Below, piece after piece: positions 9,701 through 55,410 of a DNA stretch of 64,000 nucleotides. Made by a program: the position numbers and the translations under genes. The stretch comes from Amoebophrya sp. A120. Its lineage: Eukaryota; Protista; Dinoflagellata. The stretch spans positions 5,731,754-5,795,753 of the forward strand of contig CAJINV010000005.1 in assembly GCA_905178155.1 (NCBI GenBank). The letters are read 5' to 3'. Positions within the stretch are counted from its first letter, which is position 1. The number at the start of each line of letters is the position of its first letter. Below the pieces are notes generated by a model that did no database searches, was not told where the DNA came from, and worked only from the letters and a program-made list of their open reading frames with translations.

Positions 9701-11381
9701 AAAAATGCAGCCGGTTCTGTCAGTCGACATCACAAATTTCTTCCACCAGTCGCAAAAAGTGACGGAGAATTTCAAGGCGATCTTCGGCACGACGAAAACC
9801 AATACCTGCTTCCACCCGGGACCCGTGAATGCGCAGCTGAGCTCCAAGATCAACTGGAACAATCATGATAGTACTCAGGGCGGAGGTGGTGCTGGTGGTG
9901 ATCACCAGCAGTCTGGAACAAATCTGTACTGCGACACGGCACAACCAGCTGATCCCTCTTTCCACTATGGTGAGCTCACCTTCCGCGTTTGCCGGAAGTG
10001 CAGCCAGCAGTGCCAGAAGGACAGCGTCAAGATTCAGCAGGAATTCGGACATCTGTTGAACAATACCCAGCAGAACGACAGCAGTACTAGTGGTGAAAAC
10101 AACACTACTTCTGTCCTCTGCGCCAACCGGCTGCGCATGCAATTGTTGATGGCGACGGTGCAACAGGGACTGGATGAGAATGAGCAGCAAATCCAGCAGC
10201 TGCAACTCGGATTGATGCCCCAGAGCGTGCTCCGCACCTCCACCGGGATCACGAGCAACAGCACCAAGATGAACTTCTTCGGGCCGCCCCCAAGCACCAC
10301 CGGGCCGCCGTTGACGTTTTCGAGGTATGTCCCGAAAATGACCTGGACGGTGAAGCTGAAGGTGCCCAAGCAGTCAGGACAACTAGGTGGACACCAGATG
10401 ATGTACAACCAAGAGCACCAGCAGCAAAATGTTTACGATGCGTTTTCCGGGACCATGAAGGGAGGGAGCAACATCATGGGTGTGAACAATATGAACCAAC
10501 AGGTTGCCCCGCAATCTACTCCGGAACAAGATTTCGTTCAGTTCCTGATGGAGAACAGCAACGTCGCAAACATGATCGAGTTATGCATTGCAAATATGTC
10601 TGGGTCTGGCAGAGTGCTCTAACTTGTCATGCTACATCTGGATCGTGGAAAATAAATTTGTGTTGCATGATTACCAAAGGAGGGTCACTTTTGAACAAGT
10701 TGAGAGGCAGTTTCTCATGCAAGAAAGGCATGATAGAGATCTTCTCACAGAACCTGTCATGCTAGGCCGTGCATGCCAGACCGCGTGGGTCATGGAAAAC
10801 CTGCATGACAAACCTAGCACTCTTCCAGACCCAGACACTTTTGCATTTGATACGAGTCTATCAGCTACACGCTGCCGCCCTTCTCCGCCGAGCTGGTGCC
10901 TTCTACTAGTAAGAACCCAGCAGCTCCTGCTTCTGCTTCTTCTCGCAACAGTGCGGCCAGTGGCAGTCCTGTTTTATCTACTTTCCCAGCCGCCCGGGCT
11001 TCCGCTTGCCAAAACACTCAGCAGGCGATGTTGTTTAACAGAGCTAATGGTTGGACTAGTGACCACTTCAGCAACAACTTTTCCGGTCTGTCTACTGCTG
11101 CAGCAACGACCTCGGGAAGTAATACCAGCAACAGTTGTCTTTTGACCGATTTCCTGTTTCCAATGCCGATGGGCGGTTCTTGCGGCGCCGGTGGATCCTT
11201 AGTATCAAACACATTCAACGGTACTGCGGTGAGTTCTTCGAGTTCATCCCCCGTGGGAGGCCGCCCAAGTAGCTCCTTTTCCGTCGCGATGGGAGAGGTG
11301 CAGGCACGCCCGTCGGTGGCGGAGTCAAGCGTTCTTGGGCTCAACATGTCGTCGCGCCGAAGTTCCTACATGCAAATGTAA
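6758..11381 (+). CDS. hypothetical N/Q/S-rich protein, ~1048 aa, 7 exons, 6 introners
   Basis: Removing the six elements (7018, 7338, 8272, 8548, 8902, 10582), each plus one 5-nt DR (1477 nt total), leaves 3147 nt in a single open frame from MYPYNY to SSYMQM*. Confidence 0.85.
7018..7267. mobile_element. introner, family 1 (250 nt), DR ACGTT
   Basis: TACCAAGTGTAAAAATGTCTGGGTCTGGAAG...CTTCCAGACCCAGACATTTTTGCATTTGATA; the frame is restored as RIT-LDQQ. Confidence 0.93.
7338..7493. mobile_element. introner, family 2 (156 nt), DR GCAGC
   Basis: Family-2 TIRs; the frame is restored. Confidence 0.93.
8272..8480. mobile_element. introner, family 4 (209 nt), DR GGGAG
   Basis: TATCCAAGAGAAAAACTGTGTTAGTGTAACTTT...AAAGTTACACTTACACAGTTTTTTTCTTGCATA. 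Confidence 0.9.
8548..8855. mobile_element. introner, family 3 (308 nt, ~55-nt TIR), DR AGGGG
   Basis: TATGGAAGCGTCAGAATTGAAATCGTCAAAGTTGAAATA...TATTTCAACTTTGACGATTTCAAACCTGACGCTTCCATA. Confidence 0.93.
8902..9154. mobile_element. introner, family 1 (253 nt), DR CCACA
   Basis: Family-1 TIRs; the frame is restored into ORF 9186. Confidence 0.93.
10582..10852. mobile_element. introner, family 1 (271 nt), DR CGAGT
   Basis: TATGCATTGCAAATATGTCTGGGTCTGG...CCAGACCCAGACACTTTTGCATTTGATA; the frame is restored into ORF 10896. Confidence 0.93.
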
Positions 11382-12468
11382 AAGCTATAAGACCAAGACG
11401 GCGAAGAAGACTCTTCAAGTAGAAACAACTTCTGCGATAAAAATTGTGATCTTGTTCACAGTGGCGAGGGAAGTAGACGAGGGTGGGACTATATGTTGCG
11501 GGGCCGCAGTTGCGCTAATATCGTATGCATATGCAAGTTAGTAAGTACTATCTGCGCGAGCGAGACTCATTTATCATTATCGCACAAGTGCTGACTGCTT
11601 GGTCTCGTAGCTGCTCCCGAAGATCTCGAACAAGCTATGACCACAAGTTGTACCTGATAGCTTCTGAGATGTTGAATTTATTGAGACACCGTGAAAATGA
11701 GGAACTTAGGTCTACTTTTATTCAATCTGTACCTGGTACTCTGCACTCGATCATGACTTCTTCCAGCATATGTTGTTCAGAAGTTGTCAACTCAAGTGAT
11801 AAAGCCTGCTATCAAAAGTCAAAAGTTGCCGGGCCGTTCCGCTACGAAATGATACTGTAATACTTTTATTTATGCACTATACAAATCAAAAAACCGGAGA
11901 AGATTAAAGATATCGCGAGCTGCTTTCTAATTTTTGCCTTTTTCGAAATGTTTGCATCCTTAGACAAGAACTCGTCCCATATCTATGGTGAGGAGCTGCG
12001 CGAAGGATGTCGAAACAAAAATCATCATGTTGTTTTGCTGTACTATAACAATAACTGTTCCCTAGAAATGTAGTGAATTTTGTGAATTTCGAATGTTATA
12101 AAAAGAAGCTATCGATTATGAATCGGAAAAGAACCTAAATCGAAGCTTTGACTTTCTGGTCCAATTGAGGTGATTAGTGAAAACTCCACGTCGCCACAAT
12201 TCATCCTTCTAGAGTCGAATTCATAGTGGAGAAGAAAGAGAATTTGTTGAGAAGGATTTGTATAGCAAACAGACCACACCTAAAGAACGCTACTAAGGAT
12301 CGAGAATGATGATGAAAAGTATGACCACATCTGCAAAAAATCAGTACTTTATATTTTCTGTAAACCCGCCACCGCCTGGATGTATTTTTAACGTCAACTT
12401 ACTACTTATGATCTGCATTATTTTTAAAGCAAGAACTAGGCACTGACTCTTTCTATGCACAAGCATGG

Positions 12469-12626
12469 AGTACATGGCCAATTCCAACTTTTTTCCAAGA
12501 AATAAAGGGACCACAACATAGCTATGAAGGCACAGCAGGTGGCATGAAGTACATGGCCAATTCCTACTTTTTTCCAAGAAATAAAGGGACCACATAGCTA
12601 TGAAGGCACAGCAGGTGGAATGAAGA
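12469..12626. repeat. ~78-nt tandem duplication
   Basis: GTACATGGCCAATTCC...AAGAAATAAAGGGACCAC...ATAGCTATGAAGGCACAGCAGGTGG occurs twice. Confidence 0.8.
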
Positions 12627-12887: not shown

Positions 12888-12958
12888 TCGACCTTTGCTG
12901 GTCGGGTGAGACCGAAAGAATTATCGACCTTTACTGATCGGGTGAGACCGAAAGAATT
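12888..12958. repeat. 36-nt tandem duplication
   Basis: TCGACCTTTRCTGRTCGGGTGAGACCGAAAGAATT occurs twice. Confidence 0.8.
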
Positions 12959-16160: not shown

Positions 16161-16163
<3 letters not shown>

Positions 16164-23153: not shown

Positions 23154-26100
23154 ATGTCTGCTATAATCTTCCGGTCGTCGCTCCGTGCATCAGCAGGACA
23201 GCCAGCATCTTCATTTCGCTCCTCAACTTCTTGGTTCGCGCCTTCATTTGCGCAGCTTCTCGTCCTCGTGTCTTTGTTGTGCAGTGTTGAGCAAGCAAAC
23301 GTGGTCAGAAATCCGTTCGTGGTTGTAGCTGCTTTAGCGGCTCGTGCGTCATCAACTTCCAGAGGAGTATCGCAAGAGGAACCTCGACCCTCAACTGCAG
23401 GACGCGTTACAAGAGACGCTGCTGGTGCTGGTGGAGATGCAGACCTGCAAGACCTAGACCGCTTGGAGCAGCAACTACAACTCCTGGAAAGAACTACACC
23501 CACCGATGTTGAAGAGCAAGCTTTGCCCCACGCTTCAACGAAAGCGACGAATTTCAGTGAGGAAACGGAGAGGGAGAATGCATTGCAAATATGTCTGGGT
23601 CTAGAAGAGTGTAACTTGTCATGCTACATCTGGATCGTGGAAAAATTTGCGTTGCATAATTACCAAAAGAGGTCCACTTTTGAACAAGTTTAGAGGCAGT
23701 TTCTCATGCAGGAAAGGCATGATAAAGATCTCACAGAGCCTGTCATGCTAGACCGTGCGTGCCAGACCGCGTGGGTCATGGAAAACCTGCATGACAAAAC
23801 TACCAATCTTCCTGACCCAGACGTTTTTGCATTTCATAGCGAGAATGTGTGTGCGATTTGCCTGGACTTACTCGACAAACTGGAATCGCCAGAGATCAGC
23901 AGCAGCAGCTTGTGCCAAGAGAGTACAACTTCTAACCAACCGCAAGCGCAGTCCAGCGGAGAATCAATAGGTGGTGGAACAACAGCAGCAGCCCCACTAA
24001 CACCTCCGTCTACACCACAGAACAATTCGAATGGTGCTAGTACCGGCGGCACTGGCACAAGCCCACAAGCAGAAAATCTTCGCTTACGACTCCCGATCTC
24101 CAGCCGACGTGGACCGGTTCGGAATAGAAGCCGGGGAAGAACAACTGGCGAAGACCGTGCAAGAACGCCAACGTCTTCGGGAAGCAACATTTTTCGCCGG
24201 TTAGCCGGCGGTGCGCGGTTCCACGCGAATCTGTGGCGGGCCGAAAGGGCACGGAATAGGGGCCGGTATGCACCAGAGCAAGCTGCAGCTTCGGGTGGAA
24301 ATGTTGGCATCGGCGATCAACAGACCCCTCCGAGCGTCCGCCGGTACAGTGGGACTGCGAGTAATCGCATATGAGAGTGCACAACTCCCCCTCCCCCTCG
24401 TTTGTCATGCAAAATACCAAATCCACCCTTTGCCTCTTGGCACTGTTTGCATGACAAGTTCTGGTGGCCCAAATAGCACTACAATCCAGTGGAAATTTGT
24501 CATGCAAAACCGGCGGCATTCTTGCTGATGCTTGTTGTATTGCCGTTCATGCTATACAAATTATGAGGGGGAGGGGGAGTTGTGCACTGTTATATCGCAA
24601 CCAACCAGAACCACCACAGAACTCCTACGACCGCCGCGCTCGCGGTGGGTACTACTGCGGCCCCACGCACGACCACCTGCCGGCGGTGGTGTTGTGCTGC
24701 CGCAAGTGGCGCGAAATCGATCCCACGGAGAACGGAAACCCGATGCGAGTTCGATCCCAGAGTCCGCACTGTCGGAGAGAGACGATCCAGGACCGGAGTG
24801 TGATGCAAGTTGAAACTTTGGCGGAACATGTATGGATTGCAAATATGTGGTATTGCACTTTACAAGCTTTTCGTGAGTGGAAATTTTTGCATCACAAGTT
24901 GTACTAGTTCAGGGGAGAACGTGAAAATTCCCAACATGCTGCGGTAGCTGAAAACCAACGATGTGGTCACATCTGTCTTGCATGATTCCAATCAATACTT
25001 TACTACGAGTGCGATCCTACAACTTTTGCCCAGAATACTCCGAGCTGCGCTGCAACTTTTGCGAACAGCGGAACCTGAAAAAGATTTGGGAACAGGAAAA
25101 ATTAAAGAAAAAGCAGCAGCAAGAGGCTATGCAGCGCATCACAGACGGCGAAGTAGCAACCAACGAGGAAATAAGCCAAGACTTCCCTGATTCTGGCCTG
25201 GTCCGCCACCGTTGCTCCTCTGGCAGCTGTATCAAATGCAAAAATGTCTGGGTCTGGAAGGTTGGAAGACTTCTCATGCAGGTTTTCCATGACGCGTGAG
25301 GTCTGTCATACATGACCCAGCATGACAGATTTTGTCCGACCTCTATCATGCCTCGTCTGCATCCATGAGAAACTCCCTCTCAGCTTGGTCAAAAGTGGAC
25401 AGCTTTTGGTAATCTTGCAACACAGATTTTTGCACTATCCAGAATCAGCATAAGAAGTTGCAACCTTCCAGACCACCCAGACATATTTGCAATCCATAAG
25501 CTGCGCCTCAGCCTCCTCGCGCACGACCGCAGCGCCGTCTACGGTCGCAGGAGCCACCGGGAACAATGGCTACAACAGCAACACCGCTGGTGGGAGCGCG
25601 ACTGCCCGATCTTCTATCCGACTTTCCACCGACGGAACGGAGGACCGGTTGATGCTGTTTGGCTCTACCGCATCGGCATCGTCTGCAGCTTCATCTGGTG
25701 CGCAAGCGCCAGCTGCCCCTCCCGCAGGTGGAACCAGCACGAGGACCACGGCGGGGGAGGCGCAACCTCCAGTTGCAAGGAGCGGCGGCGGTGGCTATCC
25801 GTCGAGCAGCACCTTGTCCAGGCAGCTCCTTCCCGGCGGTGGAATGCGTGGGTGTTTTGGTGGAACCTCCTCGTTCGTGTGTGGGGCAGGCTGCGGCGCG
25901 GGGCTTTCGTTGACGACCGGGACTGGTGGCGCGCGCCCGGCTACCGGCGTTTCGTCTCCAACCGTTGTGGAGCGCGGCGGTGCGGGAGACAGACAAGAAT
26001 GCAGCTGTCAACAACAGCTTGACGCGGCAAATAAGGAGCAGGATAAAGTGCAAGCGGCTTGTCTTTCCTGCGCAGGAGCAGGGGCTACTGCAGCTACTGG

Positions 26101-35640: not shown

Positions 35641-36084
35641 CACACACACATGAAGAAAGAAATCGAATGTGGCTCAATTGTTTGATTTGAAAAAACCTCC
35701 GTCATCTGGTGGTGGTTCTTGCCGTCGGTGGAACAGAGGATGGATCAAGATCGCACTCGTCATCATCACAACCATACATAGACAAATCCATCGTGGTGTC
35801 CTCGACCAACAAGGAGAAGGACAAGATCGTGGCTGTTTGTTTTCACTTGGAATTAGTATCCATATTGACGCCAAAAGTTCAAAAATCTCAATCACAAATC
35901 AACGATTTCTATTTCTCTCGAGGGAGATGTCACGGGGTTGAATGGATCCAATTCAAACAAGTTGATCTTATCGATGATGTCACTATTGACCAAAAAAGGT
36001 TATCTTCATCAGCATTCAATGTTCCTCCGCATCTTCCCGTTCCCCCGGTCGTCCGACTTGCAAAACAGCAACCAGTGCATGCCC

Positions 36085-36215
36085 TATCCAGGAGAAAACA
36101 CCCATCCATTTTTTGCATGTTGACAAACAGTGCTTTTGATGCGTGAGCATGTGATGATTGTCACGCATCATGCGTGACAATTTAGATGGAGATGGGTGTT
36201 TTATTTTCCTGGATA
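36085..36215. mobile_element. introner, family 7 (131 nt), DR TGCCC/CGTCC
   Basis: TATCCAGGAGAAAACACCCATC...GATGGGTGTTTTATTTTCCTGGATA; related to 53630. It lies in a poorly resolved minus-strand coding region. Confidence 0.8.
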
Positions 36216-37024
36216 CGTCCGCTGCGTTGGCGACAAAGTGGTCTTTCAGAATCAGTTCCACCGAGCACTGCAGCGGGAGATCCCCGCCCAACAGGTGGAT
36301 GCCTTGTTCGTGCAAGGATTTACAATATTCCTGCTTTCCCGCGACCGTTTCTAAAGCGGCGACCGAGGTTTGCTTGCACCAGTCCATGCTGCCGCTGGTG
36401 GCGAAGTCGGCGAACCTGGTTGATGTGGTTATTCTCTACTTATGTCCTGGGAATTTGTGTAGTTCGATGATGGACAGGCAAGAAGTTCTTCATTTGTGTC
36501 GCATAATCAAAAAAGAACATCATCGTGATCAAAAAGACGAAGAAATACTTGTCCATCCGGTTGTAGTGGGACCCGGGCTCCGTGAAAAAGCAATTTTTTA
36601 TGGAATGAAAAAAATCTGGTAGTTGTCCTGTTGCCCGAAGTGTTTTGATCATCAACATTTTTCCCATTCTTTACAACTACAAGTGAAGATTCTCGATCAT
36701 GTCTCGTCCATCTACAACTATTGCATGACAGATTACCAGCCATGCCCCGGCTGACGCCGGGGCGAGCGGCTGTTGTGGTGAGGCAGGACGATTTGCGGAT
36801 CGGGCCACAGCGCCAGAGCTTTGCGCACGGCGCGGTAGGTCGAAGGAAATACTGGCGCCGGTTTGCGCCATCTCAACCCGCTGGGCCTCCTGCGCGCTTC
36901 CCGCGCCTTCAGGCGCTATGCGCAGGGAGCAGCTGCAGCGACGCTTGGGGGCGAAGCGAAGCCGCCTCGGCGTAGGTGCCTGCCGAGGCAGAACGGGGGC
37001 CGCGATGCCCTTTTGTGATCACGC

Positions 37025-37580
37025 GCGAGAGGGTGGCCTGGGAGGGTGGCGCGAGAGGGTGGCGCGAGAGGGTGGCGCGAGGGGGTGCGCGAGAGGGTGC
37101 GCGGGACGGTAGCGCGAGGGGGTGGCGCGTTAGGGTGCGAACCTACGCGACAAAAAAGGCCCAAAAAATCGACCCCTTGCCGGGCGGATTCGAGTTTTTT
37201 TAACCCTCTCGCAGACCCTCTTTTTCACCTCTGCCGAGAGGTGTTGCTAATAGTCCGGCTATACTCGCCGGTAGAGGTCTACAAAGGTGGCCGAGAGGTG
37301 GCCCAGAGGGTGCGCGAGAGGTTCGCCCTTATTCGCGCAACCTCTCGACACCCCTGTCCCCCTCTCGCTTACCCTCTCGGGGCCCTCTCGGCCACCTCCG
37401 GGCCCCATAGGCGCGGCTTTAGGGCGACCGGTTCGGCTGGCTATACTCGCGCCACCTCTCGGCCACCCTCCCGAATGACCTCCCGCGCCACCTCTCCACC
37501 TCTGTGGACCTCTTTTTGACCTCTCTTCACCTCTTTTTGACCTCTCGGCCACCTCTCTTCTATCCTCTGTAGACCTCTTT
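37025..37580. repeat. GC-rich degenerate repeat (GAGAGGGTGGCGC / ACCTCTC arrays in both orientations)
   Basis: Tandem copies at 37025-37135 and mixed or complementary copies at 37200-37580. Confidence 0.65.
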
Positions 37581-37630
37581 TTTCGCATGAATATAATAGA
37601 TAGTAATAGGATTTTGCAATTTATGAACTT

Positions 37631-40600
37631 CTATCCCGCGGCCACGACAAGTGGCGGGTGGCTGCATGATGCATGTTCAACATGTAGAGGGATGGTCAGT
37701 AGATGAAGTAGCAGCAGGACGACGGTGGCGAAGCCTGAAGATGAATCTCCTTTGATACGTATTACAGTGAAAAATACCCCCACCCCCGAACTTAGGAGCA
37801 TTTGTATTGCAAACCTTTCCAAATGAAACATTCGCCCTCTTGCATCTATCAGCATCACAGGTTTCCAATCGTGAATACAAAAAATTTGTATTGCAAAAGA
37901 CCCCAGCAAGAGCGCCGCTTGTCATGCAAGCGATACGATACACGCCTAGACTCTGCATCAGAAAGATTCATACTCCTTTCATGCATGACAAAAAGTTTTC
38001 ATTTGGAAACTTCGCATCACAAACTCTTGCAATTTCAGGGGTGGGGGGCACTTTTCACTGTGATAATACGCTCCGAAAACTCCTGATCCGGAAACGCCAA
38101 CTCGATTTGCTTCCGCACGTGCGTTATGCATTGCATATATGTCTGGGTCTGCTCTGCAAGAGTGCAAGTTTCTCATGCTTGTTCGGCAGGAGTCTTAAAC
38201 CTGTGTTGCGTGAGCAGGAAAAGCAGGGCCCCCTGCCTGTAAGGCAAAAACGCAGTTTGCCATGCGCAAAACGAAACACATAGCCCGTCATATTAAGCTT
38301 GTCATGCTTGGCTGCGCATTACAGGAGTGTGCCTGCCATTCACAGATTTGCATCACAAGTTTGTTTCCAGACGACCCAGACATATTTGGATTGGATATGC
38401 GTCATCTGCAAGTCGTGCGGTGTTCCCGACACGTGCGTCTGCAACCGGTGCGAAAAGGGCATCATAGTGCCTCTTTCGGTCGCTTGTTGGTACTGGTCCT
38501 TCGTGGTGGATGCCGGTAGAAGTTGTGGCGGCGCAGACGGTAGTTTAGAAGTAGATTTTTTTCCAGTCTGGTATCAAATGCAAAAGTATCTGGGTCTGGA
38601 AGAGTGTAAACTTGTCATGCAGGTTTTCCATGTCCCATGAGATCTGGAATGCGGGGCCCAGCGTGACAGACTCTGCGAGGTCTCTGCCATGCCTATCCTG
38701 CATGAGAAACTCGATCCCAACTTGGTCGAAAGTGGGCAGCTTTTGGCACTCATGCAACACAAATTTTTGCATGGTTCGGATTTAGCATGAGAAGTTGCAA
38801 TCTTCCAGACCCGGACATATTTGCAATGCATATCTGGTCCATGATGTTGCCGTCGTTTCCTGTCCGTGTCGCGATTTTTTTCGGCAGGAACCCATGGTAG
38901 GAACTCAATTGGTACTTTCCAGTTTCTGGACTCTTTGTCGCGACATCGCACCAGATCAAGGCGTAGTGTTGCACGGCTTCGACGACGGGCCCATATTTCG
39001 CCTCCAACCGGGCCTGCGCGGGGTCGGGAATGATATCAACGGAGGAGTTCTTCTTGTTGTTCGCCGTGCTGGTGGTGCCGCTTGGTCCAGTGTTGTGTTG
39101 CACGGGCGTGGCGGCCGTCATAGTTTGTGCTTCTGCTTGCGGGGTGGCAGAAGAAGCAGAATTGGTATTTTGGTTTGGCACTTGTGCAGCTCCCTGAAGA
39201 TGCTCTAGTTGTTTTTCATGCGGAGGTCGAGGTGTACTGGTAGACATCCCAGGAGCTGCTCCTGCACCTCCACCCACGGGCGGGTTCCTATCGACGATGA
39301 GGGTGACTTTTTTGTCGTCAAACAGTTGGGGTGGCACAGAATTCCCAGCATTCGTGTAGTTCCCTGCAGCACCTCCTGCACCAGGTGCAGCATGGTCAAC
39401 ACGACCCCCACCTCCAGTCGTCCCAGCACTCATAATTTTTCCCGCAGCTGTCGTCCCGGGAACATCACGACCATCTGGAGTCGCAGTTCTGCTGTCGCTG
39501 TAGTTGATGAACGGACCAGAATTACTACTATCTTCTTGACAACAAGATGAAACCACGACTTTCGTAAACCCGTCAGTCTGTTCGGCCAAGTCGAGTAAGT
39601 CGTACTGCAGCGCGTGATATCAAATGTAAAAGTGTCTGGTGTTTTGTCTGGAAACAAGACCTTGGTACAGCACGGGGAAGAGAACGACTTGAACTTTTTG
39701 AAGAAAGAAAATAAAAGAGAACTACGTGAATGCACTAGCTCGTCGTTCCCGTCCACTCTAGAACAATATATATTTTCATAGTTGTAATTCATCTTATATC
39801 AAAAGGAGGGAGATACGACCCGTAGCCATCATGGGTGATGTATCAATTACATAAAATAAAGAAGAAAAACACTGGTCTTGTAGGAGGGGCTAGGGGCTTC
39901 GCAAGTGCGCAGAAGGCCCGCTGTCCACCATTTTGAAACCCAACGCGAAAAGCTCGCGTCCCCCTCGCACTTTACCAGGACGACCCCGAAGGGTAAAAAG
40001 AGGAGAGAAAGAAGACCCCCGAAAGGAAGAACTTTTGAAAATTTCGGTACTGCGTTATCTATCGTGGTATGCCAGCCATCCCTAGCCGGAGAAACTCGAC
40101 TAGACTAGGGCGGTACTGGTTGTCTGGTGTTTTGTCTGGAAACAAGACCTTGGCACAGCACGGGGAAGAGAACGACTTGAACTTTTTGAAGAAAGAAAAT
40201 AAAAGAGAACTACGTGAATGCACTAGCTCGTCGTTCCCGTCCACTCTAGAACAATATATATTTTCATAGTTGTAATTCATCTTATATCAAAAGGAGGGAG
40301 ATACGACCCGTAGCCATCATGGGTGATGTATCAATTACATAAAATAAAGAAGAAAAACACTGGTCTTGTAGGAGGGGCTAGGGGCTTCGCAAGTGCGCAG
40401 AAGGCCCGCTGTCCACCATTTTGAAACCCAACGCGAAAAGCTCGCGTCCCCCTCGCACTTTACCAGGACGACCCCGAAGGGTAAAAAGAGGAGAGAAAGA
40501 AGACCCCCGAAAGGAAGAACTTTTGAAAATTTCGGTACTGCGTTATCTATCGTGGTATGCCAGCCATCCCTAGCCGGAGAAACTCGACTAGACTAGGGCG

Positions 40601-43600
40601 GTACTGGTTGTCTGGTGTTTTGTCTGGAAACAAGACCTTGGTAGCTTTTGCTACCTATGCATCAGAGATTTTTCTGTGTGCTGAAATGCGCATCACGAGT
40701 TTGTATTCTTCCAGACCCAGACATTTTTGCATTTGATACGTGAAAGCGGTTCCGAAAATGCTGTAGCTGGTTGTGGTAAATCAAAATGTCCTTCGTGTAA
40801 ATGGTGTTCTTCCCACAGATACGCGGGTAAATTTCGCCGTCCTGAAACAGAATCGTCTGGTTCATCGCGCTGGGAAACTGCTGAGGACAAGGAAAAGCAG
40901 GTGGCGGGGTAGGGGTTGGAGGTTGAAGGGCATGATTATTTGCAGCTTCCGCTGTAACGGGTCCTGCTAGGAAGTATCAAATGCAAAAGTGTCTGGGTCT
41001 GGAAGCACGCATGTTTGTCATGCTTGTCTGGCATGAGTGTTAAATCTGTCATGCACGCTAGCCAAGAGCAGCCCCGCTTTTCTGTCATGCAGAAACGCAG
41101 TCTGTCGCGCAGAATAGGCAACACCTAGAAGCTCAGAAACTTGTCATGCTGCGCCAGCACTTGTGGCTCCCTCATGATACGCCACCCAGCGTCACAAGTT
41201 TGTTCCAGACCCAGACATATTTGCACTGCATAGGAACGAGGGCAAGCCCAATTCCGCGTTCGTCAGATTTTGCTGCATCCGTGCCCCGATGGCCTGCGGG
41301 GCGTTGCTGAGAGGAAATAACTGGTCTGAAGATGGTGGAGAACAAGGGCCAGCAGCACTTGGATAGGCATTTACATTTCCAGGCACGACGGGCATGACAG
41401 CACTGGCAGCAGCTGACTGGTAGAAGCCTGGGCAAGTGGTCGTACTAGTTGCAGCAGAAGTTGTTGCCGGCGCCGGTGTAGAAGTAGTACTTGATGTGCC
41501 GGCGCACGCGAAGTCGGCGACCTGTGTAGTCCCATTCACAGCGCGCTCGTGTTGGTTCACCATTTCGGCGACCTGTATCGTAGTGCCCGGCATGGATGCC
41601 CCGATTCCTTTCAGCCGCAGTTCGTTCCGGACGAATTTTTCACTCGCCTGGTAGGCGTTCTCTAGAATTTGGTGGAGAAATATATGGCGCTGTCAAATTA
41701 TGGTGCTCCATCAAATTCTGTGGCCCAACATTTTAGTTGTGGAAAGCAAGACTCGACGAGGAAGCAAGGACTATTTCGCTTCTTGCCATGAACATTCGAC
41801 ACGGACCACAGTGCTAGGCAGCGCGTCGCAGTCGCACGCTTGTTAGCCTGCGGCCTCATTATGCGGAAGTTGAAATTCAGAGAGGGCGGTTTGCATGACC
41901 AACAACCGACAAGACAGCAACATAATTCCATGTAATCACAGAAGTTCTTGACAGCGCCATAAACGAATCCCACCGAAGACAGAGGCGGCGGCTGCCGCTG
42001 TTCTTGTTGCGCGCCGGAGATGCTGGAGATTTGAGTGTTGTAAAACTATTTCTCGTACTAAGTAGCTATCTGGCATAGGATAGACACTTTTTTTTGTCCG
42101 ATTTGAAAACATTGGCAACATGGGTATGATTTACCGTGAAACGGAGATGAAAACGAGATATTAAAGCACACTCATTCATAAAACATTTGTTTTTGTACCT
42201 TTTGCAGTCGTACAGCATGAACGCCGGGCTGTAATCGCTCCCGTCGGTATCCCGTAGAAAAAACTGCTCACCAACTTCTTCAACCTCAACTTGCAATGCG
42301 AAAAAGCGGAAATTTGGCATGCAAATCAGCAAAGAATTAGAATGTCAATTTAGTGGCATCTTGTTTACGCATGACAAGTTGAGGCTGGAAGTGGTGATTT
42401 TTCCGATAGATTATCAAGTTTCACATGGGATACTCAACCAGGAAAAACAAGTCATACAGCATTTTCAGGTAGTGCGAGCTCTTCGGATACCACTGCGGGA
42501 GTTCTGCGGTTCCCAAACAAGACTCTCCCCGTTGGAACAGCCATTCGTTGTTGCCACTCTCGCGCGGCCCGCCGCCCGCGTGGCTACTGCCCTTCTATCA
42601 AATGCAAAAGTGTCTGGGTCTGGAAGAGGCAAACTTGTGATGCTGCATTTGGATGGTGAAAAAATCTGTGTTGCATGAGCAGCAAGAGGGGCCAAGCTTG
42701 GCCACGCGTAGAGGGCATTTGTCATGCAGGATGTGCATCGATAGGCGCTCAAAAGATCTGTGATGCTATGGCATACATCACAGACATCATGGATCATGGA
42801 AAATGTGCATGGCAAACCTCTCCTCTTCCAGACCCAGACATTTTTACATTTGATACCTTTAGCAGTTTCGCGAATTGCAGCATTACTTCGATGCGCTCCT
42901 CATCCGATTTCAGTTCTTCCAGGAACATCCTGCGCCTCTGCAAGCGGTGGTAGTGGAGTATGGCGCTCTCAAGCGTTACATTCTCAGCTGATTTGTCATG
43001 CAAAATGAGCATCAACATGCACACAATGAAGCTGCTTCGCATGACGAATGTTGGAAAGGCTAAACAGTGCCTCAAGAATCTGTGCGGAATTTGTAATGCT
43101 ACAGGTGCAAGTAGAACCTCTCATCTCTTCTTTGACTTTTGGTTTTGCCATTATTGCATTACAAATTCATGTAACAGTTGAGAATGTAACACTTGAGAAC
43201 TTCATATGGAGTTGGTGCTGCACCATCTGTCGGCGTTGCTCCATGGAGGCCTGGTGGTTAGGGTGTCCGAAATTTCCGTACGCCGTCATTAACACCGTTT
43301 CGAAGGAGATCAACATCGGGCGGAGGACGTGCTCTATCGCAAGAAAAAACTGCTTCAGTGTGAACTTGTGATGTATAGAATGGAACACAGAACTATTTGT
43401 CTTGCTACATCTGCAAGACCTTGAATCTTTAGGGGTGTTTTCCCTTTGGAATCGCGCATGGCAAATTTTCTGTCTCATGTGTAACAAACTTGTGAAGCAG
43501 ATCTTGCAAAATCACCACAGTGAAACAGTTTTTTCGTGGGATATGCTCCTTAAAAAACGTGGCCACCCGCCGAATCACCACCCTCTCGGGCCGCACCCGC

Positions 43601-44965
43601 AGTGCCAGTGGAGGTGGCCGACTGGCCGGAAACCTTTTCAGCAATTGTTCGCGGTGCTGATCTTCCAGCCTAAACAAAACGCTCAACAGACTGCTGTTCT
43701 GCTTCAGAAAGTCTTCCGCTGCTAAGAATTCGCACTGCAAGAAGACGTCGAGCGGCGTTTGCTCGAACACCCCGCGCTGCGACCAGAGGAACCGCGTGCG
43801 GGCCTCCCCCTGCATGTTGTCGATGATGTGCTTTAGCAGATCCCGCTGGCTCTTGCCCGGGCTTTGCAGCTGTTTCGCCCGTTTCTGGAGAATGGTTTCC
43901 AGTAGGCGAACTTCAGCAGTTGCTGATGAAATAAATTCTGCGGTAGCGGGAGCGGCACCGGCGCCCCCGGGGTACAAGTCTTCCTTGTTCGAAGCAAATG
44001 TTGGGTAGAGGGTCGAAGAGTGGTCAGCAGGAGTAGAAAGCAAAGGTTTTATTTTTCCCACGACGACCTCCTGGTCCGACAACAAGAGCTGCGCATCACC
44101 ATTTGTTGACCTCTCTTCCTCCCCTTGCTTCACCCGCAACACGAGGTGCAAAATCGCCTGCAGCGCCTCTTTGGACGGGTGGATCTTGGTGGGCAGGGGG
44201 CAGATATCAAATGCAAAAAGTCGTGCTAACGTTAACGGTTTTCACAGATGGCAGTTATGCATTACAACTTTTCCCTTCCATGCATGCTACGCAATACAAA
44301 TTTGGGCACCCGACCCTACCCTTTCTGATGCGTTACTGCATCACAAATTCCGTTAACGTTTTTAACGCTTTTTCTTGTGATAGCAGAGATCGTCGACCAG
44401 GAAGGTTTGCCAGTCCAGAATTACCTGGCGGATCTCGGTATCCTGTCCAAAAGTCTCGCGCTCGAGCTCGTATTGCAATCATGCATTACAAATTTCTTTC
44501 TCAAGTTAAATCTTCTGCATGACAAATTTACTTCTCATGCTGAGGAAATTTGTAATGCATTTATACGACGAGTACGATACTTTAACTTTTGCATTTCATA
44601 CTCGGTCAGGGCCGCTTTGTCGGACGCGGGCAGGGAGCCGCGGAGGCTGATTATCCTGAGTAAAAACGTACCCACACCAGAGTTGTAATGCAAATCTGCA
44701 TGCCAAAAGAGTTTCTCATGCTGAGCCCCATGAAAGGCGTTTTCTAATCGTGTTTTGGGATTTGTGATGCTATAATCAGCATGATATGCTAGGCCTGTGA
44801 TGCTGCTGAACTACCTAAACAGGATTACACTACAAGGACAAACTTGTCATGCGAAACAGCCAAAGCTGGTTGATTTGTCTAGCAGATTTACCATCTTGAC
44901 TCTGGTGTGGGTACGTTTTTACTCAGGATACTGATCCACTCACGCTCGTTGTCGGTGGTTTTCAT
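37631..44965 (-). CDS. large hypothetical protein interrupted by 14 introner-type elements
   Basis: Manual splicing links MKTTDNERE, LHLVLRVK, KEHVLRPM, QLHYHRLQ, YLKMLYDLF, LVREIVLQ, LHQILENAY, FRNRFHALQY, IMDQTGKK and MTHVRKQ in one frame. The junction at 41683 and both termini are uncertain. Confidence 0.72.
37760..38065. mobile_element. introner, family 8 (306 nt), DR ATACG
   Basis: TATTACAGTGAAAAATACCCCCACCCC...GGGGTGGGGGGCACTTTTCACTGTGATA. Confidence 0.9.
38125..38397. mobile_element. introner, family 1 (273 nt), DR TGCGT
   Basis: Family-1 TIRs; the frame is restored. Confidence 0.9.
38572..38832. mobile_element. introner, family 1 (261 nt), DR TCTGG
   Basis: Family-1 TIRs; the frame is restored. 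Confidence 0.93.
39618..40738. mobile_element. family-1 introner expanded to 1121 nt by a nested tandem insert, DR CGTGA
   Basis: Both TIR ends and the DR are intact; the frame is restored as RFH-ALQY. Confidence 0.9.
39633..40641. repeat. 488-nt unit x2 plus 33 nt (A-B-A-B-A), near-identical
   Basis: TGTCTGGTGTTTTGTCTGGAAACAAGACCTTGG at 39633, 40121 and 40609. The identical ORFs 39905 and 40393 confirm the 488-nt period. Confidence 0.95.
40975..41232. mobile_element. introner, family 1 (258 nt), DR GGAAG/GGAAC
   Basis: Family-1 TIRs, related to 8902; the frame is restored. Confidence 0.9.
41683..41961. mobile_element. TIR element, family-9-like (279 nt), no clear DR
   Basis: Perfect 14-nt TIR TATGGCGCTGTCAA...TTGACAGCGCCATA; flanks AAATA/AACGA. 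Confidence 0.75.
42067..42212. mobile_element. degenerate introner (~146 nt)
   Basis: TATCTGGCATAGG...CCTTTTGCAGTCGTA; element+5 removal restores AFML-LVREIV. Confidence 0.5.
42290..42432. mobile_element. degenerate introner (143 nt), DR CTCAA
   Basis: CTTGCAATGCGAAAA...TTTCACATGGGATA; the frame is restored as FFLVE-VEEV. Confidence 0.7.
42596..42855. mobile_element. introner, family 1 (260 nt), DR CCTTC/CCTTT
   Basis: Family-1 TIRs; the frame is restored. Confidence 0.9.
42959..43206. mobile_element. introner, family 9 (248 nt), DR TGGAG
   Basis: TATGGCGCTCTCAAGCGTTACATTCTCAGCTG...CAGTTGAGAATGTAACACTTGAGAACTTCATA. Confidence 0.92.
43335..43543. mobile_element. introner, family 4 (209 nt), DR TGCTC
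   Basis: TATCGCAAGAAAAAACTG...CAGTTTTTTCGTGGGATA; the frame is restored. Confidence 0.88.
44205..44382. mobile_element. introner, family 10 (178 nt), DR GCAGA
   Basis: TATCAAATGCAAAAAG...AACGTTAACGG ... CCGTTAACGTT...CTTTTTCTTGTGATA. Confidence 0.88.
44439..44600. mobile_element. introner, family 2 (162 nt), DR CTCGG
   Basis: Family-2 TIRs; the frame is restored. Confidence 0.9.
44652..44930. mobile_element. introner, family 6 (279 nt, perfect 32-nt TIR), DR CTGAT
   Basis: TATCCTGAGTAAAAACGTACCCACACCAGAGT...ACTCTGGTGTGGGTACGTTTTTACTCAGGATA. Confidence 0.95.
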
Positions 44966-46074: not shown

Positions 46075-48846
46075 TCACATCAGCTTCTCATCCTGCACAC
46101 GTCCCCAAAAAATCAGACTAATCCGGCTCCCATACACGTTTTTCTCGATTGGGATGCTGTGCTGAAAAACGCTGTTCACCGGTGTCGTAAAGGCGAACAG
46201 ATCGCCGTCGTGCTGCGGGAAGGAGAATTCGCGACTGGTTTTCAAGTGTTTAAACGCCAGGGTTCTCGTCGCGCCGAAAGAAACACCGATGGTGACGTTG
46301 TGATCCTCTGCTACTGATTGTTGATGCTTTCGTGTGGCTTGCTGGGCTGCTTGTTGGGGTCGTTGCTCTATCGCAGTAGTTCCTCTTGAAGATAGACCTT
46401 CTCCCGGTTCTTGAGGCGAGGGTAGTTTCTTCGCTGTGTCAGCTCCTCCGTCGACACGAAGATCGCCTTCATCGAGCAGGAGCGTTTCTATAAGATAAAG
46501 ATGGTCTACTTGTTGTTCAATATCGGTTTCGTTTTGCGGCGCAGCGAACAATATCCGAGATGATTGAGCATCAGTCTGTTCATCAATTCGATCTCCAGCA
46601 GGTGAGGTTGACGGATTATCTGGGCGGGCATCTTCAGGACGTCGTTCATCTTCTCCTGCCTCAGTGGACGAGGGGGTGGCAGGAGCAGAGGAAACGATCG
46701 CAGCAGCTGGAGCTGCTCCAGTTTTTCTTCCAGTTCTCTTCGCAGGCACAGGAACGGCATCGGAGAGGTGTGTCGCTTCCCCTCCTGCAAGAAGAACACT
46801 TCCTGTTGTACTAGTTGTTCTTGTTGCAGCTGCGGCCCCGCCGGCATCTTCTACCTCTGACCGCAAAAGAAGTGGCTCAGCAGAGGACGCACGAACAGGA
46901 ACAGCTTCATTGTTCCTTATCGTGTTTCCCACTTCCTGCTCCTCGTCCACCCTCTTCCGCGCTCCCACAAAATCTTGCTCCTCCACCGCAACTCCCACAG
47001 CTTTTTCCGTTCTCCCACTGGCCTGAAACTTATCGCGGTGCATGTCCGTCCAGTCAGTTCCGTTCCGGTACAAATTCGCGATGGAATATCCCAGTCTGAA
47101 GCTCGGAAACCGGTGTTGCACAGCAGAAAGTACCTCGCGGTAGCACTCGCTTTCCTTCAACAGGTATCAAGTGCAAATATGTCTGGGTCTGGAAGATTCC
47201 GGGACTTGTGATGCATATTTTGTATGAGTCATGATGAATGTAATGCATGATCTAGCATCACAGAATTTTACAGGGCTTCCTGATGCCTATTCCGCATGAG
47301 AAATGCCCTCTCGTCCGCGTAACACAAACTGGACTCCGTGTTGTTGGTCACGCAATACAGTTTTTTTTTGGAATCCAAAGACAGCATGACAAGTTGCAAT
47401 CTTCCAGACCACCCAGACATTTTTGCATTTCATAACAGGACCGGGTCGACGATGGCCGGGTGCTTGGAGCGGCGGTAGACCGATTTTTCAAATTTCGGCC
47501 CCAGCTCTATGGCGCTCTCAAACGTTACATTCTCAACTGTTCCATGAATTTGTAATGCAAGAATGGCAATAAACGACAAAGAATGGAGGTCGCACCTGTA
47601 GCATTACAAATTCCGCACAGATTTAGGCACTGTTTCGCCTTTTCAACATTTGTCATGCGAAGTAGCTTTATTGTGTGGATCTGGATGTCGATGCTCATTT
47701 TGCATGACATATCATGTAACAGTTGAGAGTGTAACGCTTGAGAACGCCATAAGCTCCGTGGTCAGACGGTCGTAGAAAGTCGTGCTTGTTGCTGGGGGTG
47801 ACGACGGTGCGTTTCTCGCCTGCGGAAGCAGAAGTTCATGCTTGTTCTTCAGGACGTCTTGTGGCCGTGAGGAGGAGGACCTAGTCGCTGCTGGTGTGCC
47901 ATTTGAATTATTCGACGTCGGACAACCAGCAACCTCCTCGCCCAGCCCGCTAGCACGCTTCTTGCTAGTGCTCGTCCCGATAAACTTGGGTATGTAGATT
48001 ATGGATGTGTCAGAGTTGAAATCGACAAAGTTGAAATGATTTGTCATGCATAAAATGCGACACAAAGACTGACTCTATTGCTGAAGGCGCAAGGGAGGCA
48101 GATTCTAGTGCTGGTGAGGGTCAAGAATTGGGCTACTGACTAGCATGACAGGGAGCAGCCATCTTGCCCTAAACAGCATGACAGACTTGCTTCAGGGGCC
48201 AGGAAAATTTGTCATGCGCCGATTGGAAACTGTCGGCCCAACTGGTATAGATTTTATGCATCACAAATTATTTCAACTTTGTTAATTTCAATCCTGACGC
48301 TTCCATATAGATGCAGCAGTGTTTCAACTGCGCCACGTCCCTCTCGAACTTCGCCCGCTCGTATTCCGCAACCTTCGCCGCCTTCAGCCGCTTCGTCTCC
48401 GTTTTCGAAAACATCTCCGCGATGCTTTGCTTGTTTTTGCTCGTGATCAGATTAATCTCGGACTCGGGCGGCCGAAACAACTGGTCTGCGTAGATGGCGG
48501 CGGAGTAGGTTCTTTGGTTCTTGATAATTCCCAGTGAAGCTGAGGCTGAAGCTGAACTCGGATCTCGGCGAAGATTGTTTATTCCACCTCCCCCGCCTCC
48601 AGTGCTGGACGAGGCACCACCGGCAGCAGGTGCAATGGCAGCTTGCGCTGCTCCTACACGACTAGCATATGGAGCTGCTTGGGACGAAGATGAGGAAGCA
48701 GCCGGGCCGCTGGCCTTGTTCGTTCCGGACGACCTGGAAGAAGCCCAGCGGGACCGAGGCCTGCTGCTGCCGGTAGTTGGCGCTGGGCCATGATCTGGTG
48801 CGCCGCTGGGGGAAGGGAAAGTGGTGCTCGAGGACGACATGGTCAT
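46075..48846 (-). CDS. AlkB-like 2OG-Fe(II) dioxygenase (~644 aa), 4 exons, 3 introners
   Basis: The spliced product has CIYIPKF, ANLYRNGTDWTDMHRD (HxD), VTIGVSFGATRTLAF, QHDGDLFAF, FQHSIP (distal His) and RISLIFW (2OG-binding Arg). Confidence 0.85.
47165..47434. mobile_element. introner, family 1 (270 nt), DR ACAGG
   Basis: Family-1 TIRs; the frame is restored. Confidence 0.92.
47508..47751. mobile_element. introner, family 9 (244 nt), DR AGCTC
   Basis: Its interior is the reverse complement of 42959-43206; the frame is restored. Confidence 0.92.
48000..48307. mobile_element. introner, family 3 (308 nt), DR TAGAT
   Basis: Family-3 TIRs; the frame is restored as CCIY-IPKF. Confidence 0.93.
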
Positions 48847-52154: not shown

Positions 52155-55100
52155 TTACAACACCATTTGATTTTCTAAGCATTTTCCACGAATGAAAACT
52201 AAGTGGACTAGGATTCCGATCAACATAAACGACCTAGGGCCGCCCTCGACGATGAACCCCGGTGGACCCCGATCCGGTTTGCTGCCGCGAGCCTCCTTCT
52301 GCGCCGGCGACTTGGGCTCCTTCCGTACTGCCCATGATATCGTCCTGGCTACTATTTTCCTCCCGACGCCGGCGCTGCCGGCGCTCGTTATGAATTCGTC
52401 GCCCGGTGGGAAATCGCCCTTGCGAGGGACAGAACATGACTTGCAGCGCATGAAGAATCCGTCTCAGTCTGTCTCTGCGCTGCGGAGAAGGAAATTAAGG
52501 AACTTTGTAAAAAGTGCGTACTTATTTATAGGTCCTCTGTGTCTGTTTAGTGTTTACGCCCAGAGGTGACTGGAGAGAACGACAGGAGTGCTTGTCACAG
52601 TCTTCGTGCTATTCATCAGCACAACTGTTGCGCTAATGATCAGCACAACTGTTGTGCTAAGAATACTGTTGTTGTCAACAACATATTGAGATTGACGCTA
52701 ATGATCCATCGGCAAAATTGGATGTCGTGCGCCGCTTACAAAAAAAAATGATGCATCTGAGTGCTGCTCCCGGTTGTAGAAGCCAGCACCTTCTTAATAC
52801 ATGGCAGAGCATTTCCCCTGGGAGAATTTCCCACCAGGCATCAAGATCATACCGCTCGTACTCGCTCGGCGACATCCCCATCGGAATGTCATCCCGCTAT
52901 GCACCGCAAGAATGCCATTATATCCAATAGAACATACAAAAATTTTCTTCCGGGAACAGCACCGACGCCACTGGTGATTGCTTGACAAAAACAAAATTGT
53001 TTCATGCATGACAAACTCCGGGTGTTTCATCGTTCGTTATTCTTTTTCATGATGCTGATCGAAGCTTGTTAGCAAACTGACCAAAAACCTCGCTCCTGTA
53101 TGGTGTTCGCTGAGAGCAGCTGCGCGCACTCGGTCTACGACATGCTTGCACAGGATACTCGTTGCTGGTCCACCATTGCGAGGTACGATTCCGTCGGTGG
53201 CGGTAAGGCGGATCTGATGTTGTTAAATCAATATGTTGGGCAGCACGGAAATAGGAAAAAATCAAGATGAGGACCATTCCATTGTGTTGCTGCATTAGTT
53301 TTCGATCCTTACCGCTCTTGTAGCGCAAGTACTGAAAAATACCCATTGGCCCGCATCCACTTGATCACTTCGTCCGTGTATGCAGCGGCGGAAAATCTTT
53401 CTCATGATCACCAAATTTATCAATCTGTAGCGTTCTTCATGCGTCATCAATGCGCCGCCTGAAAAAAAAGATGGTTGTGCAGGATTGCATTGGTTCATAC
53501 GTTATCGCAAATTGAAATTGATTGATGTTGATGAGAAACTACTTTTCCCCGCTCATACCGTGTACACCGGCGGTCCCTCGGGGCCCCAGGAGTCAGTCGG
53601 GGTACTAGCGCTAGCAGTCCCCCGTCCTCTATCCAAAAAAAAAAGACCCATGATCCTCATCCAGATTTTGCATGACAAACACAGGATTTGCTGCATGTTT
53701 TGCATGACAAGTTGGATACTAGGGAAGATGGGTGTTTTTTCCTGGATATCCTCGTGATTTGTCCGGAGGTGGAACATTCTCGGCGAGCAGTCTGACCTCC
53801 ATCGGAAGCTGGAACAAAGTCCTCCCGGTATCCTTGCTTTTTCCGACGGTCCTCGCCGGGGGAAGCGCTAATCCGGGAACAATGCCCACGGCAGGAGGTC
53901 GCGGCTCCCGCTGGTGCGCACCACCCGCGTAGTACTGCTCAATTTGTTCCACCAGGTGTCTCCCGGAGGAATCGCTTTGCAGCTGGTCTTTCAGAGTTAT
54001 GAACGGGAAGAATGGTTCGCAAGGGTAGTACCACCAACTCCAACATCAGCTGTTCTTGCTCTTGCAGCATGTCGCTGTCTGATGAGCATGAGAAAGAGCA
54101 AAATGTCAGATCTCGCTCCAGCGTCGCAAATTTACTTTTGTTGGCGGTGGTCAGGGCTGCAGCAACTAGGTAAGCGTACAAGAGTTACTAGTATTAGGCA
54201 TCATGGGAATAAGTACCCTCACCGCCTCCACCTCCTCACGTAAAAATATGCGTAATTCAAATTTTCTCTTCGTCAATGCAAAAACGGCATGACAAATTGC
54301 AACTAAACGTGGTACTACGGGTTTCCATACTAGTACGTCGCTTTCATAAATGTGCGGCGCAGTTGAGGCGGAGTCGTGCCGGAACTGAAGGTCTGGGGCG
54401 TGGTCTTAAACACCGTTTTCTGTCCGGAATCACCAGCGGCGACGAGCAGATGCAACCCGCCAGTGGATGCCAGTATCACAGGAAAAAGTAGTGTTAACGT
54501 CAACGAATGTCATGCAGGAACGCATGAAGATGTAGAAAGATGTAGATGGTGATAGACATCACTGGAATTTGTATTGCATACGTGCTAAGCAAAATACATT
54601 CTTCATGCATAGCTGCAATCTGTGAAGCTGACGACCGTCAGCAATCTGTGACGATAACACGACTTTTTATTTGGTTGATAGCCGGCTTTCCGGGACCATA
54701 CTTCTTTCCCACCTCGGCTTCCACGAAGGTGTGCAGAAAGTGGTATGCACCGCAAAGAAGTACCGCATTACGTAGCAACCCGATTTGTCCCTCTTGGCAC
54801 TCAGTATGAGTCATTTATTACTTACGTGGAATGCTAAATCGGGAGGCACGGTAGTACTTAGACTCATTTTGTCTTGTTTGACATGACTTTGTCATGCGTA
54901 ATTGCATGACACAGTGGTCCACCAGGTACGATTCTCTATCTCTACATCAGGATAACTGGAGTTCCGTCGTGTCGTAGTCCACTTGTAGTTCTGCCTCGAT
55001 CGCCGATATCCTGTGCAAAAGTATCGCGCTCGTAGTAATTGCATTTATGCATTACAAATCTCTTTCTGAAGGCAAATCAGCATTACAAATTCAATTTGTA

Positions 55101-55410
55101 ATGCAGGGCTAAGATGTGTATGCAATTTATACTAGTACGACTACGATGCTTTTGCATTGCATAGCCCCGCGAAACTGCAGTTGAACCGGTGTAGCCCACA
55201 CTCCCTCGCCGGTCAACAACGACGTGGCGAGGAAAAGGGGCAGGAGGAATCGGCACACGAAAGTTTTCAGCGAAAAGTGAAGGGCGTGATCCCTGGAGAA
55301 AGTCGAAGGATTGTTCCACATCTTCTTGGTCAACATGCTGGTCGTGTTCATCCGCGACCGCAGGGAAAAAATGCCGGCGGACGGGTCAGAAAATTTGATG
55401 TTTGTCATGC
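52155..55410 (-). CDS. multi-exon hypothetical protein with mixed introner and GT-AG introns (partial model)
   Basis: Spliced runs RGAIEAELQVDYDTTELQFLHTFVE...PASTGG and DKSRGRGT...VYTDEVIKWMRANGSALPPPTESYLAMVDQQRDDIPMGMSPSEY. Junctions near 54050-54350 and 52450-52750 are unresolved. Confidence 0.55.
52898..53157. mobile_element. introner (260 nt), DR CCCGC/CTCGT
   Basis: TATGCACCGCAAG...CTTGCACAGGATA; the frame is restored as QQR-DDIP. Confidence 0.75.
53214..53342 (-). other. canonical GT-AG intron (129 nt)
   Basis: Minus strand reads GTATTT...CTAAT...pyrimidine tract...CAG; removal gives RANG-SALP in frame. Confidence 0.7.
53379..53557. mobile_element. introner (179 nt), DR CCGTG
   Basis: TATGCAGCGGCGGAAAA...TTTTCCCCGCTCATA; the frame is restored. 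Confidence 0.85.
53630..53748. mobile_element. introner, family 7 (119 nt), DR TCCTC
   Basis: TATCCAAAAAAAAAAGACCCAT...ATGGGTGTTTTTTCCTGGATA. Confidence 0.88.
54474..54680. mobile_element. introner, family-10-like (207 nt), DR GCCAG/GCCGG
   Basis: TATCACAGGAAAAAGT...ACTTTTTATTTGGTTGATA; the frame is restored. Confidence 0.78.
54744..54954. mobile_element. introner (211 nt), DR AGTGG/ACTGG
   Basis: TATGCACCGCAAAG...CAGGATA; the frame is restored as ELQ-FLHT. Confidence 0.75.
55007..55163. mobile_element. introner, family 2 (157 nt), DR GCCGA/GCCCC
   Basis: Family-2 TIRs, close to 7338. Confidence 0.88.

Follow-up and report, generated by a model that had tools for sequence, protein, structure and literature searches.

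Amoebophrya is a marine parasite, and the DNA considered here, a 64-kb stretch of contig CAJINV010000005.1 from Amoebophrya sp. A120 (referred to as the window), carries in its genes short inserts that correspond to the introners of this strain. A120 introners are described as about 240 nt long on average, with inverted repeats of TAT, seven variable bases and then As, and with non-GT-AG ends; how they are spliced was left open, with no splice signature and with borders called variable (PMC7789003). Most A120 families are called DNA elements with terminal inverted repeats (TIRs) and mixed splice sites (PMC12130899, 22 of 58 supplement rows), and the method of PMC9860276 allows insertions in opposite orientation. 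Introners forming introns in either orientation are reported for Polarella glacialis and, by citation, for Aureococcus anophagefferens (10.1101/2020.10.14.339549).

The window elements resemble the published A120 introners in their inverted repeats, short direct repeats, non-GT-AG ends and repeated families (PMC7789003). Their ends read TAT, seven bases and at least three As, and the direct repeat, 3–5 nt in the published description, is 5 bp. The two descriptions differ in that PMC7789003 gives direct repeats in variable positions, no clear splice signature and an unknown border, whereas we observe a uniform 5-bp target site duplication (TSD) and one transcript-polar register that fits all 32 introns analyzed, and count both orientations. 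In the main text of PMC7789003, the word 'strand' does not occur and the 'orientation' passages available concern genes, although its figures (Fig. 3, S19–S25) may show the register. No paper on introner orientation or register in Amoebophrya was found in a search that left subscription journals mostly outside. The element system itself is already known; the counts of orientation and the fixed polar register are added constraints.

The introners of Polarella and Aureococcus share TIRs and TSDs, insertion in either orientation and TSD bases at the borders with the window elements. However, they depend on G[TCA] and AG ends supplied by element or TSD and are biased in orientation in the described classes, whereas here neither dinucleotide is needed and the ratio is near even (104:83 in a second assembly) (10.1101/2020.10.14.339549). 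The nonconventional introns of euglenids also have a TIR stem joining their ends, TSD-like repeats and non-canonical junctions; they differ in end motif and lineage, and are reported to leave as circles (PMC11282704). In Fritillaria, non-canonical introns are transposon-derived, non-GT-AG and removed by an adapted spliceosome. They prefer AG-AC and AG-AT as end dinucleotides, whereas the outer bases here are free and come from the target site (PMC11282704). Compared with canonical U2 introns, nearly all of the window introns lack a GT/GC/GA donor with an AG acceptor; their cut sites appear to be polar relative to the transcript, as in U2 introns.

Anatomy and identity of the elements

The inserts are 130–310 nt long, start with TAT, end with ATA, carry imperfect TIRs and have a 5-nt direct repeat on either side. 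Scanning the window for TAT..ATA with such a repeat gave 39 candidates, 31 of which have a TIR score of at least 12. Two block-shuffled windows gave 7 and 4 candidates with maximum TIR scores of 9 and 10, and none reached 12. The TSD is a perfect 5-bp repeat in 22/32 window introns, whose end logo reads TAT, seven variable bases and then As, with fewer As in some families. The same logo is seen at both element ends when read in the transcript sense, in the window as well as in the second assembly. This second sample comes from a pattern search of one other assembly (142 loci of about 430 matching stretches, 80 with long flanks), in which the TSD is a perfect 5-bp repeat in 246/321 elements, 4 bp in 3 and a perfect 6-bp repeat in none. 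Membership in the IS3EU/GingerRoot transposons, which have TA..TA termini as here, was rejected on this count, as their TSD is usually 6 bp (PMC10045372).

Five families of non-GT-AG introns are repeated in the window. Because the end logo matches the description in PMC7789003 and four proteins identical to window exons are named Amoebophrya sp. A120, the inserts are, judged by sequence, the published introner elements of this strain. They also have the features of miniature inverted-repeat transposable elements, namely TIRs, a fixed-length TSD, small size, lack of coding sequence and an empty site; the last is provided by an intronless paralog at 32810–34498, collinear across the site of the element at 31438. 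No transposase family was found among the window open reading frames (ORFs) scanned, no Rfam family in the window and no family-1 ends in viral contigs. The motif GCAT-[GTC]-AC and its complement occur 80 times in 6861 nt of elements versus 27 times in 49,593 nt elsewhere. This motif spans unrelated families, often 35–46 nt from an element end, and is possibly a shared site for a transposase or a splicing factor.

Both orientations and exact removal in the gene models

Orientation was called from alignments of element interiors, with 35 nt trimmed off each end. The initial annotation had placed the family-1 copies at 10582 and 23577 opposite to those at 25230 and 26666, all in plus-strand genes, and motif positions and interior alignments both bear this out. 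The motif it cited is exact at 10789 (within 10582–10852) and 23775 (within 23577–23838), and its reverse complement, with one mismatch each, lies at 25273, 26709 and 38614. The interiors of 10582 and 26666 align with a score of 33 in the same and 228 in the opposite orientation, against a shuffled maximum of 27. The copies at 23577 and 25230 do share a gene, as proposed: both, together with 26666, lie in the RING gene that encodes P0002. Likewise, the family-9 copies at 42959 and 47508 are mutually inverted in the minus-strand genes of P0004 and P0001 (scores of 32 same and 223 opposite in the transcript sense). Family 2 was said to read the same way in plus- and minus-strand genes, which holds for 4283 and 7338 (P0003) and 44439 (P0004). 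At 55007 the host strand is called from ORFs, namely a 128-codon minus ORF, and from the neighboring block; the site is also covered by a plus-strand ORF of 142 codons.

Counted per family against gene strand, the window ratios are 6:6 for family 1, 3:2 for family 2, 1:1 for family 9 and 3:0 for the 308-nt family; the pair 24370/60558 gives 1:1 if the assumed strand of 60558 is correct. There is no inconsistent pair among these calls, and both family-1 orientations occur inside each of the P0002, P0003 and P0004 genes. In the second assembly, a slightly different scan, which required TAT/ATA, gave a strand call for 241/339 elements, and 58/60 loci with several calls were unanimous. Among the 241 strand-called elements, 187 were assigned to a family; 9/9 families occur both ways, with a total of 104:83 (p 0.14). 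An orientation bias of family 1 (45:26, p 0.03) was rejected, as p becomes 0.29 when corrected for nine tests.

Introns were located by mapping four deposited A120 proteins (P0001–P0004), 100% identical to window exons, onto the window. Three exon searches gave one protein each (P0001, P0002 and P0003), and the fourth gave P0004 (A120) and P0005 (Amoebophrya AT5). The four A120 proteins contain 34 introns, of which 32 equal an element plus exactly 5 nt and two are GT-AG. Removal of element plus 5 nt opens frames of 1050, 981, 651 and 436 codons. The initial statement that all copies restore the frame thus stands for 32/32 introns in the deposited proteins, with the correction that the frame is restored by taking out the element and one TSD copy, not the element alone. 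Removal of the element alone or with 1, 3 or 4 further nt did not yield the long ORFs. Element plus 2 nt mostly did, but taking both bases from the downstream side led to stops at 10582 and 28231; a 1+1 cut, by which one extra codon would remain, is incompatible with the deposited proteins, where 32/32 introns are at +5.

Retention would disrupt the coding sequence at 32/32 introns: 25 are not a multiple of three, six have stops in all frames, and 10582 meets a stop. The AT5 protein P0005 shares approximately 40% identity with P0004, and the alignment is gap-free at the junctions of 43335, 42959, 42596, 39618, 38125, 36599 and 36085. Near 41961 the BLASTP and MAFFT alignments of AT5 differ, and this site was excluded as independent support. 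A conserved-domain test of the register covered 41 flanking exon pieces of the second assembly. The element at L011:3806 splits an SNF2 helicase domain there (profile 94–225, then 228–289, continuous across), which supports removal, not register.

These data bear on the idea that the junctions are template-switch artefacts of reverse transcriptase, the elements being kept in real mRNA or in dead genes. The gene models derive from cDNA, and a hairpin together with short direct repeats is where such artefacts classically arise. However, every retained element would break the frame or add a stop, the joined P0004 aligns with the AT5 protein gap-free at several junctions, and junctions are present where no direct repeat remains. 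In view of this conservation and of the decayed repeats, we regard template switching as the least probable of the explanations considered.

Register of the cut and candidate mechanisms

The register is expressed as x, the number of upstream-TSD bases inside the intron, and only mismatched TSD copies constrain it. A value of x=1 fits all 32 introns, compared with 31 for x=2, 27 each for x=0 and x=3, 26 for x=4 and 25 for x=5. The mirror register, x=4, is excluded by 4720, 23577 and 24831 on the plus strand and by 41961, 38068 and 36215 on the minus strand, whereas x=1 is excluded by none. All six polarity-informative introns therefore point one way (two-sided coin-flip p 0.03). P0005 of AT5 retains the His at 38068, which is given by x=1 only, and the Asp at 36215, for which x cannot exceed 2. 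In Table S4 of PMC7789003, each of the nine predominant A120 splice pairs begins with N-T. Read in the transcript sense, TSD mismatches in the second assembly number 33 at positions 1–2 versus 17 at positions 4–5 (p 0.03, post hoc), and those in the window 10 versus 7; in one second-assembly element, x=4 or 5 creates a stop and x=1 does not. Because x=1 fits every intron, the mirror is excluded, and the AT5 residues, Table S4 and the second-assembly mismatches agree, the cut most likely falls, on either strand, 1 nt ahead of TAT and 4 nt beyond ATA, giving N-TAT...ATA-NNNN in the transcript sense. The ends are symmetric, while the cut appears to be polar and to follow the direction of transcription. 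The two-fold symmetric removal signal proposed initially thus survives in the ends and in the use of the interior both ways, but not in the register.

A polar register places the reaction on RNA and disfavors precise excision of the elements from DNA in some nuclei or stages, as with ciliate internal eliminated sequences, with mRNA copied from the excised DNA. The elements do have the anatomy of DNA transposons (TIRs and the fixed, mostly perfect 5-bp TSD), and their removal is exact and blind to orientation. On the other hand, which TSD copy is retained depends on the direction of transcription for either strand (6/6), and removal is exact where the repeats differ at 4/5 positions and offer no microhomology (24831, 38068). 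The elements are also retained in two independent assemblies, and we know of no germline-soma split in this lineage. DNA excision is therefore very unlikely, though marginally less so than template switching. The suggestion that the pattern leads away from the spliceosome or toward DNA excision is not upheld, since the register follows the transcript and six introns exclude the mirror.

With moderate confidence we favor a relaxed spliceosome, which would take N-TAT as the donor and define the 3' site by position, not by AG. Insertion would be the work of a DDE transposase encoded elsewhere. N-TAT may serve as a donor in which the +1 base is free, as the element start copies positions +2 to +4 of the host canonical donors in hand, GTAC and GTAT of the two GT-AG introns. 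The 3' site would then be set by distance from the paired or recognized right end. As the interior is used in both orientations, the marking signal must sit in the two-fold symmetric ends; with the same motif at both ends, an inverted element would still offer a 5' donor and a 3' end signal, and a polar reaction would be blind to orientation. Removing 1 + 4 nt of the duplicated target would bring back the original coding sequence, so that almost any insertion would be harmless and the elements could spread. In A120, the spliceosome is almost complete with U1 snRNA undetected, and 66,565 RNA-supported introns are reported (PMC7789003).

Several observations weigh against a relaxed spliceosome and the register on which it builds. 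At x=1, 19/32 introns start without G and 28/32 end without AG; G[TCA]-AG is possible in any allowed register for 2/32 introns only, and GT-AG for 1/32. A conventional spliceosome copes poorly with non-G starts and non-AG ends. A drift of the +1 base to G, seen in the window (5/6 decayed vs 8/26, Fisher p 0.029), was not replicated in the second assembly (15/41 vs 63/193, p 0.38), where the scan favored younger copies. There, mismatches at position 5 have G on the intron side in 3/8 and on the exon side in 3/8, and among perfect TSDs, G5 counts 63 and the mirror C1 57. AG is not enriched at the 3' end in the window or the second assembly. No branch point was located: the spacing between GCAT-N-AC and the 3' end varies, 5/29 elements have no sense copy, and the motif occurs on both element strands at differing distances (43 sense, 37 antisense). 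A single intron, together with Table S4, separates x=1 from x=2, and the register is read from deposited gene models built on transcript alignments, not from RNA reads. Moreover, polarity alone does not single out the spliceosome, as any RNA enzyme is polar.

The last point leads to a dedicated non-spliceosomal system, which would cut and ligate pre-mRNA by means of a hairpin- or end-recognizing nuclease and a ligase, possibly derived from a transposase or integrase. The initial annotation had named a hairpin-guided RNA cut-and-ligate reaction and a transposase-derived factor, and we keep such a system as a rival that is possible but clearly less likely than the relaxed spliceosome. Such a system would need neither GT nor AG, and the second assembly gives no sign of selection for a +1 G or a 3' AG. 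Either orientation gives strong terminal hairpins (z -6.7 and -10.1), with a median end duplex of -44 kcal/mol in the 26 elements with intact TSD. A parallel is offered by euglenid stem-loop introns, for which a system of this kind has been suggested and which leave as full-length circles by a route that is unknown (PMC11282704). In contrast, both canonical donors share +2 to +4 with the element start, and some introns whose ends pair poorly and whose TSD is gone (38068, 24831) are removed in the same register. At 38068 the end duplex is -14.2 kcal/mol, near the shuffled median of -13.0, and the left end is interrupted by a nested element; going by such sequences, a long hairpin is not always needed for removal. 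No such enzyme was found, and the window ORFs scanned gave no transposase match. A bulge-helix-bulge geometry, as for the tRNA endonuclease, was set aside, since the TSD copies are direct repeats and cannot pair. Should A120 nevertheless possess a second mRNA splicing system, which is a tentative proposal, a nuclease and ligase would read the transposon end motif and cut at -1 and +4. It would precisely erase tens of thousands of transposon insertions in any orientation or target sequence.

Host genes, unusual copies and implications

The layout of the window is that of eukaryotic DNA, with genes in long same-strand blocks. The host genes, elements and canonical introns are collected in the table.

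Table. Host genes, elements and canonical introns of the window. For elements, the strand is that of the host gene, and orientation A or B is relative to the transcript.
Feature	Position	Strand	Details
P0003 host gene	4037..11381	+	1283 aa; 8 introner introns within the window
P0002 host gene	23154..28942	+	1344 aa; 7 introner introns; RING motif distributed among several exons; both family-1 orientations present (23577 vs 25230, 26666)
Gene with three elements (30046-30325, 30378-30720, 31438-31592)	29611..32116	+	570-codon ORF after removal vs 156 unspliced
P0004 host gene	36009..44965	-	1087 aa; AT5 homolog P0005; 14 introner and 2 GT-AG introns; family 1 in both orientations
P0001 host gene	46075..48846	-	644 aa; 2OG-Fe(II) oxygenase PF13532 match, E 1e-6, below curated cut-off; 3 introner introns
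Family 1, orientation A	7018..7267	+	
Family 1 (subfamily 1B), orientation B	8902..9154	+	
Family 1, orientation B	10582..10852	+	Stop at 10620 if retained
Family 1, orientation B	23577..23838	+	AAT at start; x at most 3, from mismatched TSD
Family 1, orientation A	25230..25498	+	
Family 1, orientation A	26666..26927	+	
Family 1B, orientation A	38125..38397	-	
Family 1, orientation B	38572..38832	-	
Family 1, orientation B, enlarged by internal repeated insert	39618..40738	-	Whole 1126 nt absent from P0004
Family 1B, orientation A	40975..41232	-	
Family 1, orientation A	42596..42855	-	Splits segment conserved in AT5
Family 1, orientation B	47165..47434	-	
Family 2 right part, orientation A	3880..4033	+	Left end not identified
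Family 2, orientation B	4283..4432	+	
Family 2, orientation B	7338..7493	+	
Family 2, orientation A	44439..44600	-	
Family 2, orientation A if host on minus	55007..55163	-	Host strand from ORF evidence only
Family 9, orientation A	42959..43206	-	
Family 9, orientation B	47508..47751	-	
308-nt family	8548..8855	+	One shared orientation relative to transcript in the three copies
308-nt family	26273..26580	+	As above
308-nt family	48000..48307	-	As above
Old enlarged element, decayed TSD	4720..6881	+	x = 1 or 2
Element, poorly matched ends, decayed TSD	24831..25037	+	x = 0-2
Element, TSD mismatch at position 5	28231..28416	+	x at least 1; non-GT start
Element, decayed TSD	41683..41961	-	x = 0-2; non-GT start
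Element, decayed TSD	42248..42432	-	x = 1-4
Old composite intron, TSD lost, with younger element 37760-38065 nested at 5' end	36599..38068	-	x = 1 only; junction His conserved in AT5
Element, decayed TSD	36085..36215	-	x = 1 or 2; junction Asp conserved in AT5
Canonical GT-AG intron	42023..42198	-	Donor GTAC
Canonical GT-AG intron	36416..36548	-	Donor GTAT

The end of the gene at 29611..32116 was computed from ORF length. Its intronless paralog (P0006, 563 aa) stands in tandem at 32810–34498, and neither has a Pfam family above the cut-offs. The first 102 aa of P0003 were not found in the window; positions 1–4033, with a 12-nt tandem array at 2430–2700, probably belong to a P0003 intron longer than 4 kb and terminated by a family-2 right end. 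In P0002, the RING motif seems to be split, with C-x2-C near residue 144 and the rest near residues 675–725, about 530 residues apart (window 23844–26625). At 19257–21614, an uninterrupted 786-codon plus-strand frame contains a proline-rich stretch and has a weak Pfam match to PF15633 (E 0.022, below cut-off).

We also notice several unusual copies. The element at 23577 starts with AAT instead of TAT, so that the intron begins with GA at x=1, and the following exon opens with the same four bases as the element. The enlarged family-1 element at 39618–40738 contains a 488-nt unit twice (window 39633–40643), with a 35-nt repeat starting with TG three times at 488-nt spacing; these repeats resemble a tandem miniature LTR (long terminal repeat) element or an assembly duplication. 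In the composite intron 36599–38068, the young element 37760–38065 is inserted in the first bases of the older one, and its TSD takes in the TAT of the latter. The older intron also contains a GC-rich repeat (37048–37607) that is 91% identical to L013:601–1165 of the second assembly. The intron at 4720–6881 (2167 nt, element-type ends) contains a purine-rich stretch bracketed by a 63-nt direct repeat (copies at 4741 and 5453), probably a secondary insertion. Further elements, at 52389, 53379, 53630, 54474, 55486, 60558, 61038 and 61787, probably lie in minus-strand genes with incomplete gene models, for which the searches recovered no deposited protein.

For the biology of Amoebophrya, the orientation counts and the register mean that the interior of an element is irrelevant to its removal and that the cut is apparently fixed at N-TAT...ATA-NNNN, which provides exact sites for tests of mechanism. 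The register rule could normalize tens of thousands of ambiguous intron borders in A120. It would also explain how the elements spread, as every insertion into a 5-bp target would be erasable exactly from the mRNA. Either outcome would be informative: a spliceosome able to do without both a +1 G and an AG, or another chemistry for splicing nuclear mRNA.

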